In this document: positions 2,301-13,421 of the stretch, piece by piece | Position numbering within the stretch: the first letter of the stretch is position 1 | How the letters are laid out: every line of letters starts with the position of its first letter | Assembly (NCBI RefSeq): GCF_037860775.1 | Contig: NZ_JBBEWC010000003.1 | Location: 178,969-210,968 of the forward strand | Length of the DNA: 32,000 bases | Direction of reading: 5' to 3' | Source: Emticicia soli | GTDB taxonomy: Bacteria; Bacteroidota; Bacteroidia; Cytophagales; Spirosomataceae | Translations under genes and position numbers: made by a program | The notes under the pieces: model-generated | The model's input: only the letters and a program-made list of their open reading frames with translations | Told to the model about the DNA's origin: nothing | The model's database searches: none

Positions 2301-3187
2301 TAGGGGTTCTTTTTCCTGTTTTTCTCTGCTCTCAGTTTCCAGTTATCTTTAAAATCTTTTCCAGGAATCTGTAGATTTACGTTTACTGTTGGTGCTTTTT
2401 TGGTTTTCTTAAAATCTAATACATAATAACCGTTACCGAAAATCCATTGTAGCTTTACATCTTTTACATTTTTAGGCAAGTCTTGCAAAGGTACTTGGTC
2501 GGCAAACATTGGGTTGGCGTCCATCAATATCTGGTAAGTTTTTTGGTCTCTTAGCCATGCACCTACGCTTTCGTCGCCTACTACTACACGGCCACCTACT
2601 TTTACTACACGGTTAAACTCTTCAAAAGCCTTAGCTCTTTCTGAGAATGTATTGATACCACCAAAATGGAAAACCGCATCGAAATAATTGTCTTCAAATG
2701 GTAAATAAGCGCCATTACCAATGAAATAATCTATTTGCACATCTTTTTTATCGGCAAATTTTTCTTTGGCATGACCAAGCATCGCTGGCGATAAATCAGA
2801 TAACACCGCATGACCACCCGGAGTAACTTTTTCAATAATATAAGCCGAATCTTTTCCTGTACCTGCGCCTACTTCCAGCACCTTCATGCCCGGCTTTAGT
2901 TTCAATAAACCAATCATGGCTTTGCGTGTAGCTGCCTCGTTGGCATGTAAAGACTCAAATACCCAAGAAACTCCACGGTCGTAGCGTAGGTGAGCATCGT
3001 TATAAGCTACTTGCTCCTTACGGTCTTGCTCGAAAAGTTCTTTCGGGTAAACTAAATCTACAATGTTATTTATATCGTAAGAGATGGGTTCTTCTTGTGA
3101 GCTGTTGTGAAGCGTTTTGCCATCGGCCGACAGAACAAGTTTAGTTCTGGTTTTTGGGCAAATAAGTTGGTCAAAAAATTGAGTCAT
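2300..3187 (-). CDS. Class I SAM-dependent methyltransferase with an N-terminal Trm112-like segment
   Basis: ATG start. The SAM motif I is VLEVGAGTGKDS, with a downstream acidic residue and FHFGG. The N-terminus LICPKTRTKL resembles the Trm112-type ribbon. Confidence 0.8.
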   Translation of the reverse strand: MTQFFDQLICPKTRTKLVLSADGKTLHNSSQEEPISYDINNIVDLVYPKELFEQDRKEQVAYNDAHLRYDRGVSWVFESLHANEAATRKAMIGLLKLKPGMKVLEVGAGTGKDSAYIIEKVTPGGHAVLSDLSPAMLGHAKEKFADKKDVQIDYFIGNGAYLPFEDNYFDAVFHFGGINTFSERAKAFEEFNRVVKVGGRVVVGDESVGAWLRDQKTYQILMDANPMFADQVPLQDLPKNVKDVKLQWIFGNGYYVLDFKKTKKAPTVNVNLQIPGKDFKDNWKLRAEKNRKKNP

Positions 3188-3320
3188 TATTTGATATATA
3201 TCTATGTTAAAGCGTCAAAGTTCAAGATTTTTGCTGAAAAAACCATAGGAAAAAAGCTATATTCTAATACGAATGATTAGTTTTCTTTAATGATTTTGAA
3301 GCGTAAGAAGAAAGAGTCCT

Positions 3321-3695
3321 CTATATTGCCAAAAGGCTATCGGCAGAAATTCCTAAATCATGATATAGGTTTTTTATCATTCTGAGGGTAAGAGGTCTTT
3401 TTTTGCTTAGAACTTCCGATACACGTTCTTTGCTGCCAAAGTATTTTACTAGGTCTTTTTGGTGTAATCCTTCCTCTTCCATTTTATATTTGATAGCTTC
3501 AATAGGGTCAAGTGGGGCTATTGAGTAATGCTTCTTCTCATAATCTTCTACCAGAATAGAAAGAACCTCTAGTAAGTCAGCCTCTTTGCTATTTTCAGGG
3601 CAATCCCAGAGTTTTCGGATATTATCCATTGCAGCAGTGTATTGTTCTTCTGTTTTGATAGGAGCAATAGTGATATTTTCCATATATAAAATCAT
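3321..3695 (-). CDS. higA: HigA-type antitoxin (XRE-family helix-turn-helix)
   Basis: The C-terminal segment GSKERVSEVLSKKRPLTLRMIKNLYHDLGISADSLL matches the E. coli YgjM/HigA pattern (GSKS.VSRVLSGKR.LTL...KL...FGIS). It lies immediately downstream of higB with a 1-nt TAATG overlap. An alternative start at 3683 (MENITI) is possible. Confidence 0.85.
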   Translation of the reverse strand: MILYMENITIAPIKTEEQYTAAMDNIRKLWDCPENSKEADLLEVLSILVEDYEKKHYSIAPLDPIEAIKYKMEEEGLHQKDLVKYFGSKERVSEVLSKKRPLTLRMIKNLYHDLGISADSLLAI

Positions 3696-8989: not shown

Positions 8990-9149
8990 GAAGTTGTTTA
9001 GAATTTTAATTTCAGTTTAAAAATAGTGGTATTTTGAGCGAGACAAATCAAATGATGAAAGCATAGCAGAGCTATGATTGCAATTATTTGATGTAGACGT
9101 AGCCAAAATAACGCATTTTTAAACGAAAGAAATAATCCTAAACAACTTC
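8990..9149. repeat. ~160-bp imperfect palindrome (MITE/ERIC-like) with 12-bp perfect terminal inverted repeats
   Basis: GAAGTTGTTTAG (8990..9001) is the reverse complement of CTAAACAACTTC (9138..9149). By-eye alignment of the arms 8990..9036 and 9104..9149 gives about 35 complementary positions of 47, including a shared GTTTAAAAAT core. Confidence 0.55.
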
Positions 9150-9170
9150 TTACTCTATAAGAAATGAGAA

Positions 9171-10214
9171 TTAGTTTCTCTCAGGTCTTAAGCTACGTAC
9201 AGTAGCACCAGCTTGCCACATTTCAGAATCACGCAATTCTGCCAATTCGATTTCCAGTTTCTCACGGTAATCTTCTTGAGAGTTACGCTCGATAGACTGC
9301 GCAGCTTCTTTTTGTGTTTTTACGCTGTTATATAATTTCTTGAACACCGGTTTAGTTGCATCATGGAATGGTTTCCACCAGTCTAAAGCACCACGTTGCG
9401 CAGTAGTAGAACAGTTTGCGTACATCCAGTCCATACCGTTTTCTGCTACTAATGGCATCAACGATTGTGTTAATTCTTCTACTGTTTCGTTGAAAGCTTC
9501 TGATGGAGAGTGGCCGTTTTCACGCAATACTTCGTATTGAGCGGCAAAAATACCTTGAATAGCACCCATCAAAGTACCTCTTTCACCTGTAAGGTCAGAA
9601 GTTACTTCACGGTAGAAATCAGTTTCGAACAAGTAACCTGAACCTACACCAATACCCATAGCAATAGCTGTTTCACGAGCATGGCCAGAAGCATCTTGGT
9701 AAACTGCAAAGCTAGAGTTCAAACCTTTACCTTCTACGAACAAACGACGAAGAGATGTACCAGAACCTTTAGGAGCAACCAATACTACGTCAACGCTCTT
9801 AGGAGGTTTAATACCAGTCTTTTTGCTATAAGTAATGCCGAAACCGTGCGAGAAATACAAAGTTTTGCCTTTTTTAAGGTATTGTTTAACGGTTGGCCAT
9901 AATTGAATTTGAGCTGCATCAGACAAAAGGAAACAGATAATAGTACCTTTTTTCAATGCATCTTCAATGTTGAAAAGCGTTTTGCCCGGTACCCAACCAT
10001 CGGCTACTGCTTTGTCATAAGTTTTGCCAGGGCGTTGTCCAACAATTACGTTGAATCCGTTGTCACGCATGTTCATTGCCTGACCAGGACCTTGTACGCC
10101 GTAGCCAATCACAGCGATGGTTTGGTTACTCAAAAACTCTCTTGCTTTTTCAAGAGGGTACTCCTCGCGGGTTACTACTTCTTCTTCAACACCGCCAAAA
10201 TTTAACTTTGCCAT
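9171..10214 (-). CDS. ilvC: Ketol-acid reductoisomerase (class I)
   Basis: The Rossmann motif is IGYGVQGPGQAMNMRDNG, and the length (347 aa) and the rest of the sequence are typical of IlvC. Confidence 0.95.
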   Translation of the reverse strand: MAKLNFGGVEEEVVTREEYPLEKAREFLSNQTIAVIGYGVQGPGQAMNMRDNGFNVIVGQRPGKTYDKAVADGWVPGKTLFNIEDALKKGTIICFLLSDAAQIQLWPTVKQYLKKGKTLYFSHGFGITYSKKTGIKPPKSVDVVLVAPKGSGTSLRRLFVEGKGLNSSFAVYQDASGHARETAIAMGIGVGSGYLFETDFYREVTSDLTGERGTLMGAIQGIFAAQYEVLRENGHSPSEAFNETVEELTQSLMPLVAENGMDWMYANCSTTAQRGALDWWKPFHDATKPVFKKLYNSVKTQKEAAQSIERNSQEDYREKLEIELAELRDSEMWQAGATVRSLRPERN

Positions 10215-10243
10215 TTTTATTGTTTTGTTTTGTGTTATTACTA

Positions 10244-10394
10244 TTGTCTGAACTTTGATTTACCTGATTTTTATGATTACACTGATTTTCATTTGGACTT
10301 AGAAATTGCTAAATGTTTTTATGATTTATAATTTCAAATAACCTATACTTTATCAATAAAATCATTTAATCGGGTAAACCATATTTCAAGATGA
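10244..10394. repeat. ~150-bp unit bounded by inverted copies of a ~36-40-nt motif (spacer between the GxxExxY gene and ilvC)
   Basis: The forward copy TTGTCTGAACTTTGATTTACCTGATTTTTATGATTACACTG is at 10244..10284. The reverse copy is at 10358..10394, with reverse complement TCATCTTGAAATATGGTTTACCCGATTAAATGATTT. The GxxExxY stop codon (10386..10388) lies inside the reverse copy. Confidence 0.55.
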
Positions 10395-10781
10395 TTTATA
10401 TTTCGAATTTATTAATCGCTTAAATTCTAAACTCTCACTACCAAAATTTATTAGCAAACCTACCTCAAGATTATATGCTTCCAGATAATTAATGGCTTGC
10501 GCAAAATGCACATTTTCTAACTTTATGATAGCTTTTAGTTCAACACTTACTTTATCTTCTACTAGAAAATCTACCCTTCTTGTACCAATACACTCATTTT
10601 TATAAAATATTGGCATTTCGTGTTCTCTACTAAAGAAAACTTTATTCCTGCTAAACTCAACCTCTAAAGCTCTTTGATATATTACTTCCTGAAATCCATT
10701 TCCTAAAATTTTATGAACTTCAATTGCGCAACCAATGATTTTTGAGGTAATCGATGAATGCTTATATTTTTCGTTAATCAT
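10386..10781 (-). CDS. GxxExxY protein (PD-(D/E)XK_3 nuclease-fold family, function unknown)
   Basis: G-F-Q-E-V-I-Y occupies aa 29-35. A PD-(D/E)XK-like core is present (RRVDFLVEDKVSVELK). The 131-aa size is typical of the family. Confidence 0.85.
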   Translation of the reverse strand: MINEKYKHSSITSKIIGCAIEVHKILGNGFQEVIYQRALEVEFSRNKVFFSREHEMPIFYKNECIGTRRVDFLVEDKVSVELKAIIKLENVHFAQAINYLEAYNLEVGLLINFGSESLEFKRLINSKYKSS

Positions 10782-10782
10782 T

Positions 10783-10944
10783 TTGTCTGAACAGCATTTG
10801 ACCTGATTTGATGATTACATTATGTATATACCACTATTCAAATCCAAAATAGAAACAATTCACTAAATCAATCTAAAACTCATTCAATTAAAAATCAGTT
10901 TTTCAGCGAAATCATTTAATCAGGTAAATCACAGTTCAAGACGA
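10783..10944. repeat. Second ~160-bp unit bounded by inverted copies of the same motif (spacer between ilvN and the GxxExxY gene)
   Basis: The forward copy TTGTCTGAACAGCATTTGACCTGATTTGATGATTACAT starts at 10783, 2 nt from the GxxExxY ATG. The reverse copy is at 10904..10944, with reverse complement TCGTCTTGAACTGTGATTTACCTGATTAAATGATTTCGCTG, and it starts 8 nt after the ilvN stop. Confidence 0.55.
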
Positions 10945-10951
10945 GACTGAT

Positions 10952-11491
10952 TTACAAATAATACTCCCATTCAGTGATTTCTTCTGGTAAGTACTCTATT
11001 AAACCTTTAGGGGTTTTACCTACGGCTACTCTTCCAGAACGAACGAACTCTATGATACCGTGAGGTTTGATGTATCGGAAAAAGTCGAAAATCTCTCTTT
11101 CAGTACCTGTTTTTTCTATTACTACGTAGTCGAGCCCCCAGTAAACTACCCAAGCTTTGTGTACTTTATTGATGTTTTCGACATCGATAACCTTGCCATC
11201 AATAGGTGTTGAAATTTTGAATAGGGCGATTTCGTTGTACACGATGTCTTCGTTAAGATAGCCGAAAACAGCTAGTACTTCGACAATCTTACGAATCTGG
11301 CGTACTAGTTTTTCTACCTCTTCACGCTTGTCGTGTTTAATGACAATCGTAAAACGAGAGATACCCTTTCTTTCTGTTTCTGATACCGTCAAAGACTCGA
11401 TATTGATTCTTCGGCGGGTAAAAATTATTGTGATTTTGTTGAGTAATCCGATGCTATTTTCGGTAAATACGCAAATAGTGTATGTTGTCAT
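10952..11491 (-). CDS. ilvN: Acetolactate synthase small (regulatory) subunit
   Basis: The ACT-domain start is ICVFTENSIGLLNKITIIFTRRRINIESLTVSETE. It is 179 aa and sits in an ilvB-adjacent context. Confidence 0.9.
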   Translation of the reverse strand: MTTYTICVFTENSIGLLNKITIIFTRRRINIESLTVSETERKGISRFTIVIKHDKREEVEKLVRQIRKIVEVLAVFGYLNEDIVYNEIALFKISTPIDGKVIDVENINKVHKAWVVYWGLDYVVIEKTGTEREIFDFFRYIKPHGIIEFVRSGRVAVGKTPKGLIEYLPEEITEWEYYL

Positions 11492-11517
11492 TGGTAAATC
11501 GAATCGAGATTTTTGAA

Positions 11518-11656
11518 TTAGTGATTAAGGTTTATTGAGTGATTGAGCAGGCCGCCGCTGCGGTGGTTGAGTGATTGAGTGATAATCACTCAACTTCACA
11601 ATAAAACTTTTGATTCAGTATTTTTTAATCACTAAATCGCTCATTCACTAAATCAC
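11518..11656. repeat. Dyad-rich spacer built from GTGAWT/AWTCAC motifs between ilvB and ilvN
   Basis: AWTCAC hexamers start at 11627, 11635, 11643 and 11651, an exact 8-nt period. GTGATT-type copies in the opposite orientation are at 11521, 11539, 11571 and 11579. There is a perfect 19-nt palindrome TTGAGTGATAATCACTCAA (11575..11593). TTAGTGATTAA (11518..11528) is the reverse complement of 11625..11635. A 13-bp direct repeat TTGAGTGATTGAG (11535..11547 and 11567..11579) flanks the GC-rich CAGGCCGCCGCTGCGGTGG. Confidence 0.7.
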
Positions 11657-11660
11657 CCAA

Positions 11661-13421
11661 TTATTCCAGTCGTATTTCTGATACACTTGTACCAGCCGGA
11701 ACCATCGGGAATACGTTTTCTTCTTTTTCTACTAATACCTCTAATAAATAAGCTTTATCAGATTTAAGTAAGGTATCAAGCGATGCACTAAGATTCTCTC
11801 TTTCTGAGCAAGTGTGCCCTTCAATACCAAAGCCTTTGGCAATAGTAATGAAATCAGGGTTTTTTAGCTCAACGAACGAGTAGCGATTATCGAAGAACAA
11901 TTGCTGCCATTGCCGTACCATGCCCAGATAATTGTTGTTAAGGATAATCATCTTTACGGCAAGGCCACTCTGTGCAATAGTACCAAGTTCCTGAATGGTC
12001 ATCTGGAAACAGCCATCACCAATGATACCTACTACTTCACGGTCTGGAGCACCCATCTTAGCACCAAACGAAGCCGGAATCGCAAAGCCCATAGTTCCTA
12101 AACCACCAGAGGCAATATAAGAATGAGGCTTACGGAATTGGTAATAACGTGCCGTTACCATTTGGTGTTGGCCTACGTCAACCACGATACAGGCTTCACC
12201 ATTGGTTTTATCAGAGAGCATGGCTACAACTTCAGCCATTTTTATTTTGCCTTCGCCTTTTAAATCACGAAGTGTTACTTTCTCATGTTCTTTTGCATCA
12301 AGTTTTCTGAATTCGTTCTTCCATGCCGAAAAATCTCCTTTTTTAACCAAAGGCATAAGCAATTTCAAGGCTTCTTTCGCATCACCTACAACAGGGGCTT
12401 CGGTCTTCTTGATTTTCTCGATTTCAGAAGGGTCAATTTCTATATGAATAATTTTGGCTTGCTTAGCAAACTTAGTAGAATCACCTGTTACACGGTCATC
12501 GAAACGCATACCAATCGCAATCAAAACATCGCATTGGTCGGTCATAACGTTAGGTGCATACATACCGTGCATACCCAGCCAACCCATGTAATTCGGATGG
12601 TCAATAGGCATACCCGAAAGTCCTAATAAAGTACTTGCACACGGAATATCAGTTTTTTCTACAAATTCCAATAGCTCTGGTACTGCTTCGGCTATTAACA
12701 CACCATGACCGAACAAGATGTATGGACGCTTTGCTTTATTAATCAGTTCGGCTGCCTTTTCTATCTGGTCTTGTTTCGGAACAATACGAGGGCGATAAGT
12801 AACCAGTTTGTTTATTTTTTTATACTCAAACTTTTCAGTCATTTTACTAGCCTGCGCATCACGGGTGAAATCAATCACTACCGGGCCAGGCTTACCAGCT
12901 TGAGCAATATAAAAAGCTTTGGCCATTACTTCAGGTACTTCGTCGGCGCTGGTAATCTGGTAGTTCCATTTACAAACAGGGGTTGTTACGCCAATCATGT
13001 CTGTTTCCTGAAAAGCATCAGTACCTAACAACGTTGATTTTACCTGACCTACAATACAAACCAATGGAGTACAATCAATGATAGCATCGGCAATAGGTGT
13101 AATAAGGTTGGTACCTCCCGGGCCTGAGGTTACCAGGCAAACCCCTGTACGGCCACTTACACGAGAATAGCCTTGTGCGGCGTGTCCAGCACCTTGTTCA
13201 TGGCGAACCAGAATGTGGTTAAGGCGGTCGATGTAATCATAGAGGGCATCATAAGTTGGCATGATAGCCCCACCCGGATAACCAAAAATGGTATCTACTC
13301 CTTCGGCTAGCAAACACTCCATCATTGCTTGTGCACCAGAAAGGAAGTCTTTCTTTTGAGGTTGCTCAAGATTGATAGAAAAGGTTTCTTGTTTGGCTTC
13401 CACTTCTAATAAATTTCCCAT
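11661..13421 (-). CDS. ilvB: Acetolactate synthase large (catalytic) subunit, biosynthetic type
   Basis: The ThDP-binding motif is GDGCFQMTIQELGT...NN. It is 586 aa with typical N-terminal Pyr and central FAD domains. Confidence 0.95.
   Translation of the reverse strand: MGNLLEVEAKQETFSINLEQPQKKDFLSGAQAMMECLLAEGVDTIFGYPGGAIMPTYDALYDYIDRLNHILVRHEQGAGHAAQGYSRVSGRTGVCLVTSGPGGTNLITPIADAIIDCTPLVCIVGQVKSTLLGTDAFQETDMIGVTTPVCKWNYQITSADEVPEVMAKAFYIAQAGKPGPVVIDFTRDAQASKMTEKFEYKKINKLVTYRPRIVPKQDQIEKAAELINKAKRPYILFGHGVLIAEAVPELLEFVEKTDIPCASTLLGLSGMPIDHPNYMGWLGMHGMYAPNVMTDQCDVLIAIGMRFDDRVTGDSTKFAKQAKIIHIEIDPSEIEKIKKTEAPVVGDAKEALKLLMPLVKKGDFSAWKNEFRKLDAKEHEKVTLRDLKGEGKIKMAEVVAMLSDKTNGEACIVVDVGQHQMVTARYYQFRKPHSYIASGGLGTMGFAIPASFGAKMGAPDREVVGIIGDGCFQMTIQELGTIAQSGLAVKMIILNNNYLGMVRQWQQLFFDNRYSFVELKNPDFITIAKGFGIEGHTCSERENLSASLDTLLKSDKAYLLEVLVEKEENVFPMVPAGTSVSEIRLE

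Follow-up and report, generated by a model that had tools for sequence, protein, structure and literature searches.

We analysed a 32,000-nucleotide stretch of DNA from Emticicia soli (NCBI RefSeq assembly GCF_037860775.1, contig NZ_JBBEWC010000003.1, positions 178,969 to 210,968; hereafter the window), in which a small gene of the GxxExxY family stands between ilvN and ilvC. We found that this gene is flanked by inverted repeats, here called arms, which carry an end word and a word repeated every 9 nucleotides (nt). The same arms accompany the family phylum-wide, suggesting that protein and repeats work as a pair, and the ilvN-ilvC gap would hold a single member of a family of small gene cassettes that extends across the phylum. 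Our preferred reading is a nuclease-repeat partnership, in which a dimer of the GxxExxY protein recognises its own arms and cuts at or near their end words. We give this reading a probability of about 0.5, because we infer binding, cleavage and movement, and several of the expected signatures are missing.

Arms accompany GxxExxY genes at unrelated loci

The association was examined in 80 metagenomic loci fetched by GxxExxY protein alignment alone. Fetched loci, contigs and genome tiles are labelled L followed by a number, and the taxonomy labels of metagenome-assembled genomes (MAGs) were taken at face value. Among 220 exact end words (GTCTGAAC or GTTCAGAC) in the 80 loci, 178 fell within 300 nt of the gene, a zone that makes up 24.6% of the bases (binomial p=7e-69). 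When the 60 loci with full flanks were considered, an end word was found upstream in 45, downstream in 42 and on either side in 52, compared with 2.8% of control windows. A link between motif and GxxExxY genes beyond this locus had been proposed in a sequence-only reading of the window, and these counts bear it out; the motif belongs to a dispersed palindromic family and is not confined to E. soli ilv.

In the commonest layout a single arm pair encloses the gene, the distance from GTCTGAAC to the ATG being 35-38 nt and that from the end of the open reading frame (ORF) to GTTCAGAC 26-50 nt. Other loci form a second group with a complete hairpin unit upstream, and some of these resemble E. soli in having a unit on either side (L126, L136, L137, L178 and L184). 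In the whole of the fetched DNA, each of the 26 left-right arm pairs with a spacing of 261-2000 nt surrounded a GxxExxY gene alone, and the 74 with a spacing of 82-215 nt enclosed nothing. No other cargo was found with arms of this type, that of protein clade A to which the E. soli gene belongs, in 1.3 Mb of fetched loci. Furthermore, a genome scan that used the motif only had, among the matches listed, at least seven tiles containing GxxExxY (Fulvivirga, Saprospiraceae, Ignavibacteria, Cyclobacteriaceae and others), and in at least five tiles (L011, L041, L050, L081 and L116) the motif was at most 200 nt from the gene or overlapped it. Collectively, these data strongly support a partnership between gene and repeat. 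In the literature searched, no paper described an association of GxxExxY with arms, and a search with the end-word strings returned only primer noise.

The same data bear on whether the palindromes are ordinary ilv hairpins, serving as terminator, attenuator or mRNA stabiliser beside an unrelated gene, or a static local duplication. Each ilv junction in Emticicia does hold some long palindrome, and the layout is kept in four genomes. This explanation is contradicted by the presence of the same arms around GxxExxY in unrelated operons and taxa; in addition, relatives do without the hairpins, and no T-run follows them. We therefore rejected the ilv attenuator and the plain local duplication, and we see almost no chance that ordinary hairpins account for the arms.

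Two hairpin units flank the GxxExxY gene of E. soli

The genes on the minus strand of the window run in the order ilvD, an FkbM-type methyltransferase gene, ilvB, ilvN, an ORF of 131 amino acids (aa), ilvC and ilvA. The ORF was 100% identical to the NCBI entry 'GxxExxY protein [Emticicia soli]', and its G+C content was 29.3%, against 42.2% for ilvC and 38.1% for ilvN. The gap between ilvN and ilvC spans 737 bp (10215-10951). Both the length of the gap and, from a 60-nt sample, the low G+C of the ORF had been noted in the sequence-only reading.

When both strands of the window were searched with the 17-base pattern TGAACNNNNATTTACCTGATT, allowing up to three mismatches, matches were found at 10249 and 10788 on the plus strand and at 10388 and 10938 on the minus strand. 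There was no fifth match anywhere in the 32 kb, nor any further doublet copy by pattern search. The four matches compare with 0.19 expected, and none of 100 shuffles reached four. Gapless repeat finding recovered both direct relations among the copies (62 nt at 74% and 48 nt at 71%) as well as both inverted ones. The copies thus delimit two hairpin units, at 10244-10394 (151 bp) and 10783-10944 (162 bp), each bounded by inverted motif copies, and the two units align with 78% column identity.

Read in the direction of the operon, the layout is left arm, loop, right arm, the ORF from ATG to TGA, left arm, loop, right arm, a 29-nt leader and ilvC (Table 1). The outer left arm is separated from the ilvN stop by 7 nt, and the outer right arm ends 29 nt ahead of the ilvC ATG. 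The ATG of the GxxExxY gene (10781) is 1 nt from the motif copy that starts at 10783, and its stop codon (10386-10388) lies inside the inner left arm, where it is the arm's own TGA (TCTTGAA). The best-preserved copies are the two outer arms, which are 95% complementary to each other over 21 nt; a motif hidden Markov model gave them about 41 bits, and the inner arms about 30 bits. The inner right arm forms an inverted repeat (I1) with 10910-10938. The loop of the upstream unit was related to no other unit's loop except that of the orthologous contig L001.

These measurements agree with the arrangement given by the sequence-only reading: two forward and two reversed motif copies, a unit of inverted copies on each side of the ORF, an ORF start that nearly touches one copy and a stop codon within another, a copy in the ilvC 5' leader and one just after the ilvN stop. 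Its comparison with repetitive extragenic palindromic (REP) doublets also holds as a description of the layout. Its other comparison, with a composite transposon, was not borne out because the flanking units encode nothing: they contain no ORF of 40 aa or more besides the ends of the GxxExxY frame. A composite transposon made of two transposase-bearing insertion sequences was rejected on the same ground.

Table 1. Positions in the window of the parts of the ilvN-ilvC region, listed in operon direction
Feature	Position	Strand	Support
ilvN, acetolactate synthase small subunit, upstream host gene	10952..11491	-	Pfam ALS_ss_C + ACT
Outer left arm, minus-strand reading GTCTTGAACTGTGATTTACCTGATTAAATGATTTCGCTG	10902..10944	-	pattern 0 mismatches; nhmmer 41.3 bits
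Loop of upstream hairpin unit, AT-rich, unconserved	10822..10901	-	
Inner right arm, end ...GTTCAGACAAA	10783..10821	-	pattern 2 mismatches; 30.6 bits
GxxExxY gene, 131 aa, minimal PD-(D/E)XK nuclease (predicted), clade A	10386..10781	-	PF13366, TIGR04256
Inner left arm, TCTTGAAATATGGTTTACCCGATTAAATGATT...	10352..10394	-	pattern 3 mismatches; 30.0 bits
Loop of downstream hairpin unit	10286..10351	-	
Outer right arm, ...AATCAGGTAAATCAAAGTTCAGACAAT	10244..10285	-	pattern 0 mismatches; 40.9 bits
ilvC, ketol-acid reductoisomerase, downstream host gene	9171..10214	-	Pfam KARI_N + KARI_C

No Bacteroidetes-type promoter was found in the hairpin units. The sole TAnnTTTG is inside the ORF and has no -33 box, and we therefore propose no internal promoter. 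A scan of 9000-12000 against Rfam (E-value mode) matched zero families.

Arm sequence is conserved in a 9-nt register

The consensus of 321 distinct arms was GTCTGAAC TaTGATT TatnTGATT tatnTGATT nnnnTGATT. In these arms GATT starts at +11, +20, +29 and +38, and the outer right arm of E. soli, counted from its end, has GATT in exactly this family-wide register. Across the set, 425 of 637 successive GATT spacings were exactly 9 nt. An arm is thus the end word (T)TGTCTGAAC followed by TGATT every 9 nt, abutting a start or stop codon. The repeat extends into the coding sequence. Since 62 of 80 ORFs begin with ATGAT, the start codon itself is in the repeat register, and in many members translation of the right arm and end word yields an odd C-terminal tail (KNQGNP..., ...GSDK/N). 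Arms or whole units were also seen in tandem beside GxxExxY genes (L050, L125, L141, L174, L175 and L190). In L141, for example, three right arms precede the gene and three left arms follow it, with an 84-nt period, and in both L141 and L125 the end words face the ORF, the opposite of the usual layout.

Arms of this kind could be read as DNA or as RNA. At the RNA level, the element would be of the type of the intervening sequence (IVS) of 23S rRNA: the arms would form a double-stranded stem in the ilv read-through transcript, here by pairing of the outer arms or as two local hairpins, and RNase III would cut it. The cut would release or stabilise the GxxExxY message and uncouple ilvBN from ilvC, and the nuclease would be a passenger with its substrate elsewhere. 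Consistent with this, the outer arms pair with each other in the minimum-free-energy structure predicted for the RNA of the entire 737-nt gap (-164.5 kcal/mol, z=-4.4). Folded as DNA, single units were only modestly better than shuffles (z=-1.9 and -2.5). Of 30 upstream host genes, 27 point the same way as the cassette, and the arms take up the space that a promoter would need. In protein clade B the arms around the ORF are nearly perfect 30-nt complements. In addition, the four-helix-bundle protein of 23S IVSs occurs with the same arm design, and the Coxiella 23S IVS is excised by RNase III (PMC4990558).

A stem under pairing constraint should, however, drift with compensatory changes, whereas the primary sequence of the arms is conserved over hundreds of elements. 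Similarity of an arm to its own partner was 0.64, compared with 0.60 to arms of unrelated units. Watson-Crick pairs occupy just 74% of aligned arm positions, and the mismatches on the sense strand show no wobble excess (77 G:U against 94 A:C). Same-direction tandem arm arrays (L050, L141 and L174) are incapable of mutual pairing, gene-less units also lie between convergent or divergent genes, and Rfam gave no match. Because arm sequence rather than pairing is conserved, sequence-specific and clade-specific recognition is a better reading than an RNA stem, which we consider rather unlikely. The encoded protein is the obvious candidate for the reader of the arms.

The GxxExxY protein is a predicted minimal PD-(D/E)XK nuclease

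The E. soli ORF scored 137.1 bits against TIGR04256 (cut-off 35, E=3e-40) and 130.2 bits against PF13366 (PDDEXK_3; cut-off 22, E=6e-38). PD-(D/E)XK was its sole match in Pfam and NCBIfam, with no HUH/Y1 transposase. A two-clade alignment showed G29, E32, Y35, D71 and E81 to be invariant and K83 nearly so. An AlphaFold2 model built on a two-clade alignment reached a predicted local distance difference test score of 90.1, and its best Foldseek matches in the PDB were all PD-(D/E)XK proteins, namely Cas4 SSO0001, an uncharacterised Spirosoma protein, lambda exonuclease and MGME1. Template modelling (TM) scores to the nearest solved folds were 0.4-0.56, with 13-19% identity. The protein shares the core fold and the E...D...ExK constellation with the Cas4/RecB/lambda-exonuclease branch (4ic1, 3slp and 5zyv), but is half the size and has no Fe-S module or extra domains. 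A PDB sequence search found no relative, and libraries of defence and phage families gave no match.

The GxxExxY/PF13366 family is very large: at 50% identity it numbers 27,790 representatives. Tandem two-domain fusions of 250-295 aa (P0361, P0363, P0365, P0367 and others) make up about one sixth of the best-scoring ones, suggesting that a dimer is the working unit; tandem fusions would fit two-fold symmetric DNA. In the literature searched no function is given for GxxExxY, and the few papers that name it call it unknown or mention it in passing.

Arm type changes with protein clade

We then compared arm type with protein clade in a handful of clades and found that the one changes with the other. 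Clade B proteins (124 aa, about 40% identical) have nearly perfect 30-nt inverted arms with the word TTATCACGAATTGAATACGAATTACACGAATT, and these CACGAATT-type arms abut the ATG and the stop. The arms of Bacteroides finegoldii (TTCACCACAGAGGACGCAGAGGAC...) and Bernardetia (AACACAGAGA-type) are both of the CACAGAG type, those of Treponema read ACACGGATTCG, and those of Sphingomonas consist of CGCGAAGG repeats.

A blind search of the 1.3 Mb for small ORFs immediately flanked by inverted repeats returned 32 matches, of which 30 were GxxExxY, one was a GIY-YIG protein and one a four-helix-bundle '23S rRNA IVS protein'. The arms of the four-helix-bundle cassette carry CCTAATT words at multiples of 9 nt. 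Two replicons contain both GxxExxY and four-helix-bundle cassettes, each kind with its own arms, indicating that the design is common and the arm sequence is specific to the cargo clade. When the four-helix-bundle and GIY-YIG proteins were used as jackhmmer queries, only the queries themselves were found.

The GIY-YIG gene (100 aa; L046 5299-5601, in a Cytophagales MAG) lies between hairpin units of another family (TTTTGTCATCCCGACGCAGGAGGGATC...), a double-hairpin layout like that of the E. soli GxxExxY gene. Outside rRNA, four loci have a four-helix-bundle gene whose host neighbours on the two sides run in the same direction: L016 (minus strand, 3062-3439 in reverse-complement coordinates), L237, L238 and L240. 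In the first three the gene has inverted arms of periodic words (CCTAATT, GCGGAGAGTGGAGAG-type and TCTAA-type), and in L240 only a 10-nt inverted match. The architecture of these cassettes resembles that of the GxxExxY cassettes.

Cassettes and gene-less units at gene junctions

The downstream neighbour was co-directional with the cassette in 25 of 36 cases, and cassettes share their ends with the host genes. The upstream host frame often stops at a TGA supplied by the arm, including the TGA within GTCTGAAC, and GTTCAGAC is often separated by 1-2 nt from the ATG of the downstream host gene. A gene-less unit in a Cytophagales MAG occupies the ilvB-ilvN junction and likewise supplies ends adjacent to stop and start. 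In Sphingomonas a distant-clade cassette stands at the fabD-fabG junction, in Bacteroides one follows radA and in Chitinophagaceae one follows dtd. Cassettes also occur at what, judged by eye, are likely type I restriction-modification gene junctions.

Gene-less, or solo, units were present in separate 8-kb tiles without GxxExxY from E. agri, Emticicia sp. BO119, Emticicia sp. C21 and several MAGs; among the matches listed, tiles of E. agri held at least seven and those of BO119 at least five. These intergenic units take up the spacer, leaving 6-25 nt to the neighbouring genes, and lie mostly between co-directional genes and also between convergent and divergent ones. In L190 three tandem 190-bp units beside an intact cassette have kept the left and right arms and, of the ORF, its final 45 nt, which identifies them as internally deleted cassettes. 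At least some solo units thus arise by internal deletion of a cassette, as in L190 and in the remnant of Emticicia sp. SJ17W-69 described below.

We also found signs of movement, among them the spread of cassettes over many unrelated operon junctions, the low G+C of the E. soli ORF in its host region and the presence/remnant/absence polymorphism at the ilvN-ilvC junction described below. Arms of one subfamily, recognisable by a 16-nt GC-rich insert at a fixed position, were present at no fewer than four loci across three Emticicia species, and their dispersal argues that arms have been copied between sites. Furthermore, proteins from MAGs labelled Ignavibacteriales, Flavobacteriaceae and Bacteroidota were 90-94% identical, while vertical Emticicia orthologues were 80% identical, indicating horizontal transfer if the MAG labels are right.

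The 16-nt module, CCGCGACGGCG(G/T)ACCG, was located at L002 3096, L017 7766, L115 3786 and 3965, L119 4280, L063 6387, L003 ~3790 and ~3950, and at ~11560-11580 of the window. It was also found in the arms of another (GTGATT/CACTAAT) palindrome family. The module is either a spreading arm subfamily or a tiny insert with its own target preference.

History of the cassette in Emticicia

Emticicia sp. BO119, E. agri and assembly GCA_974487575 likewise have a GxxExxY gene between ilvN and ilvC, flanked on both sides by arm pairs of the same family. In the upstream unit of E. agri the two arms share a 15-nt GC-rich insert, placed at mirror positions. Relatives with an empty junction exist as well. 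The gene is missing from E. aquatica and Emticicia sp. SJ17W-69, whose ilvN-ilvC gaps are 103 and 99 nt, and a third gene-free contig has a clean gap of 45 nt. The SJ17W-69 gap is a mini-palindrome with element-like ends (TTTCTTAAACTGTGATTTTAACC...ACAGTCAGACAAA), so that presence, remnant and absence of the cassette coexist at this junction in the genus. In an ilvB tree the genus falls into two clades; because both hold cassette-bearing members, one ancestral insertion followed by erosion and loss is the simplest history. The GxxExxY orthologues gave ratios of nonsynonymous to synonymous substitution (dN/dS) of 0.03-0.12 with synonymous sites saturated, indicating that the protein has been under purifying selection throughout. 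The E. soli cassette is therefore old, static and vertically inherited within Emticicia. An old static layout had been named in the sequence-only reading as a finding that would speak against its idea that GxxExxY proteins are the nuclease partner of the repeats, and at this locus it does so; the family-wide association still backs that idea.

Long purifying selection and vertical inheritance would also suit an operator. GxxExxY would then bind the 9-nt repeats and thereby repress its own translation or transcription, the protein would have a host function such as repair or defence, and the solo units would be decayed, inactive cassettes. The 62 ORFs that start in the TGATT register fit this explanation, as do the origin of solo units by deletion and their unique loops. 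However, an operator needs neither the 3' arm nor the conserved distal end word of each arm, the protein matches no known defence or phage family, and close relatives have lost the gene cleanly. The 90-94% cross-phylum identity points to horizontal spread, and the GC-insert arm subfamily is common to dispersed units. We hold autoregulation to be unlikely, somewhat more so than the RNA stem.

The coexistence of intact, remnant and empty alleles at one junction is likewise what a free-standing homing endonuclease could produce, by cutting the empty ilvN-ilvC junction so that repair copies the cassette in. PD-(D/E)XK is a known homing-endonuclease fold, and I-Bth0305I was among the weak Foldseek matches. 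Against homing, proteins that are 75-94% identical occur at many unrelated junctions, and it is not feasible that each has a host target of its own. Common to all sites are the arms rather than the flanks, and purifying selection long after fixation is unexpected in a pure homing cycle. Homing is thus quite improbable.

Proposed mechanism

We explain these findings by a proposed nuclease-repeat partnership. The cassette most simply became part of the ilv operon ahead of the divergence of the Emticicia species. With no promoter of its own, it would be read through from ilvBN. Purifying selection has maintained it, and some Emticicia have since eroded it to a mini-palindrome or lost it. A GxxExxY dimer would recognise the clade-specific arms and cut at or near the end words. 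This cutting activity could have placed cassettes at operon gene junctions and spread them horizontally, and the same activity could let gene-less derivatives persist and occasionally multiply. In Emticicia the system is now resident-like in behaviour and vertically inherited. By analogy with the REP-associated tyrosine transposase (RAYT) and its REP doublets forming hairpins (REPINs), it is plausible that the nuclease cuts or moves the arms. A broader proposal is that GxxExxY cassettes represent an unrecognised class of prokaryotic mobile or domesticated elements, in which a nuclease alone moves or maintains gene and derivatives via 9-nt periodic arms, and which includes GIY-YIG and four-helix-bundle sisters and the 23S IVS ORFs; this we put forward as a tentative possibility that is more doubtful than the partnership itself.

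Several results weigh against the partnership. The E. soli copy has stayed in place until synonymous saturation, which would suit a domesticated or host-useful gene equally well. The nearest folds, at modest TM scores, are end-processing nucleases and not site-specific endonucleases or resolvases. The loops of solo units are all different, matching only between orthologues or local tandems, which is not the pattern of a REPIN population or of miniature inverted-repeat transposable elements (MITEs) after a burst. No consistent target-site duplication was found when the flanks of about 15 simple cassettes were inspected by eye; A/T-rich flanks merge there with the ends TT...AA of the terminal inverted repeats. 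Near-identical cassettes in differing contexts were not found either: all pairs with at least 85% DNA identity were at orthologous loci, so that no recent transposition was caught. Two pairs considered as recent transpositions, L187/L190 and L147/L180, were rejected as orthologous loci with indels. GxxExxY occurred in 0 of 50,697 phage records, had one match in IMG/VR and was present on eight plasmids; with the family absent from cultured phages, nearly so from IMG/VR and rare on plasmids, no vehicle is evident. Finally, a non-nuclease cargo, the PF05635 four-helix bundle, uses the same 9-nt arm design. Nuclease chemistry therefore cannot generally explain the architecture, and the partnership advanced in the sequence-only reading does not extend to the design as a whole.

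Comparison with known systems

REPIN/RAYT systems combine REP doublets that form hairpins with a single-copy RAYT gene (PMC3116915, PMC3337134, PMC5581495). The GxxExxY system shares with them a small nuclease-type gene with hairpin-forming inverted doublets on both sides (E. soli, BO119 and E. agri), extragenic doublets of the same family in E. agri (at least seven) and BO119 (at least five), although the E. soli window has none beyond the two flanking units, a single-locus gene that is vertical within its lineage and under purifying selection, and tandem clusters of units. The enzyme, in contrast, is a 131-aa PD-(D/E)XK protein and not an HUH/Y1 (IS200/IS605-type) transposase, and the arms are about 40 nt long and made of a 9-nt word and an end word, whereas REP palindromes have 20-40 nt and GTAG. 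The spacers of dispersed units are unrelated and of variable length, so doublet and spacer are not replicated as a unit. The commonest GxxExxY layout has the gene inside one arm pair, and the cassettes lie inside operons and abut host stop and start codons. The GxxExxY cassette would thus work most like REPIN/RAYT, but it is no member because its enzyme is no HUH transposase and its dispersed doublets have no common spacers.

In appearance, the GxxExxY cassette is most like an ORF-bearing 23S rRNA IVS with an S23p/PF05635 ORF. Both have a small ORF (about 120-130 aa) between inverted repeats, are embedded in a host transcript without their own promoter, and show horizontal acquisition followed by vertical keeping; PF05635 cassettes in L016 and on plasmids have the same 9-nt periodic arms. 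Unlike the IVS, the cassette is at an mRNA operon junction (ilvN-ilvC) and not in rRNA helix 25 or 45, its cargo is a predicted nuclease, and arm sequence is conserved, not pairing alone. An IVS in the 23S rRNA of Leptospira was reportedly described by Ralph and McClelland in 1993.

MITEs and their autonomous parents, for example the Correia elements of Neisseria, offer another comparison. As in MITEs, units of 80-215 bp are bounded by terminal inverted repeats, are intergenic and often co-transcribed with their neighbours, and some derive from a gene-bearing parent by internal deletion. Unlike MITEs, they come with no recognised transposase (DDE, HUH, serine or tyrosine), no consistent target-site duplication was seen by eye, and the copies have neither a common interior nor near-identical counterparts at different sites.

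The clade-specific arms offer a concrete candidate substrate, DNA or RNA, for the large GxxExxY/PF13366 family, and the partnership supplies a concrete model, a RAYT/REPIN-like pairing of nuclease and repeat with a restriction-enzyme fold. The cassettes account for a frequent annotation puzzle in Bacteroidota, the small 'GxxExxY' genes and AT-rich palindromes within conserved operons, and they provide an architectural link to ORF-bearing 23S rRNA IVSs. The dispersed family of hairpin units in Cytophagales could in addition affect operon expression and genome assembly.

Other features of the ilv operon

The junctions of the ilv operon are repeatedly used landing sites. The ilvB-ilvN gap of E. 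soli (11492-11660) is a long palindrome with GTGATT/GTGAAT words, a 9-nt period and a GC-rich insert (CCACCGCAGCGGCGGCCTG). The same palindrome in BO119 has a clade-A GTCTTGAAC unit nested at its centre, and E. agri and GCA_974487575 have different palindromes in this gap. An E. soli-specific palindrome of about 160 bp, with 35-nt arms that are 80% complementary, occupies the ilvC-ilvA gap (8990-9149). It lies upstream of a terminator-like hairpin (GAGTAGGTA...TACCTACTC) with a T-run, which is kept in BO119 and E. agri. E. soli, BO119 and E. agri have the FkbM-type methyltransferase gene (PF05050; 13467-14195 on the minus strand of the window) at the ilvD-ilvB junction; it is missing from GCA_974487575, E. 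aquatica and SJ17W-69. At the same junction, contig L203 has an ORF6N gene.

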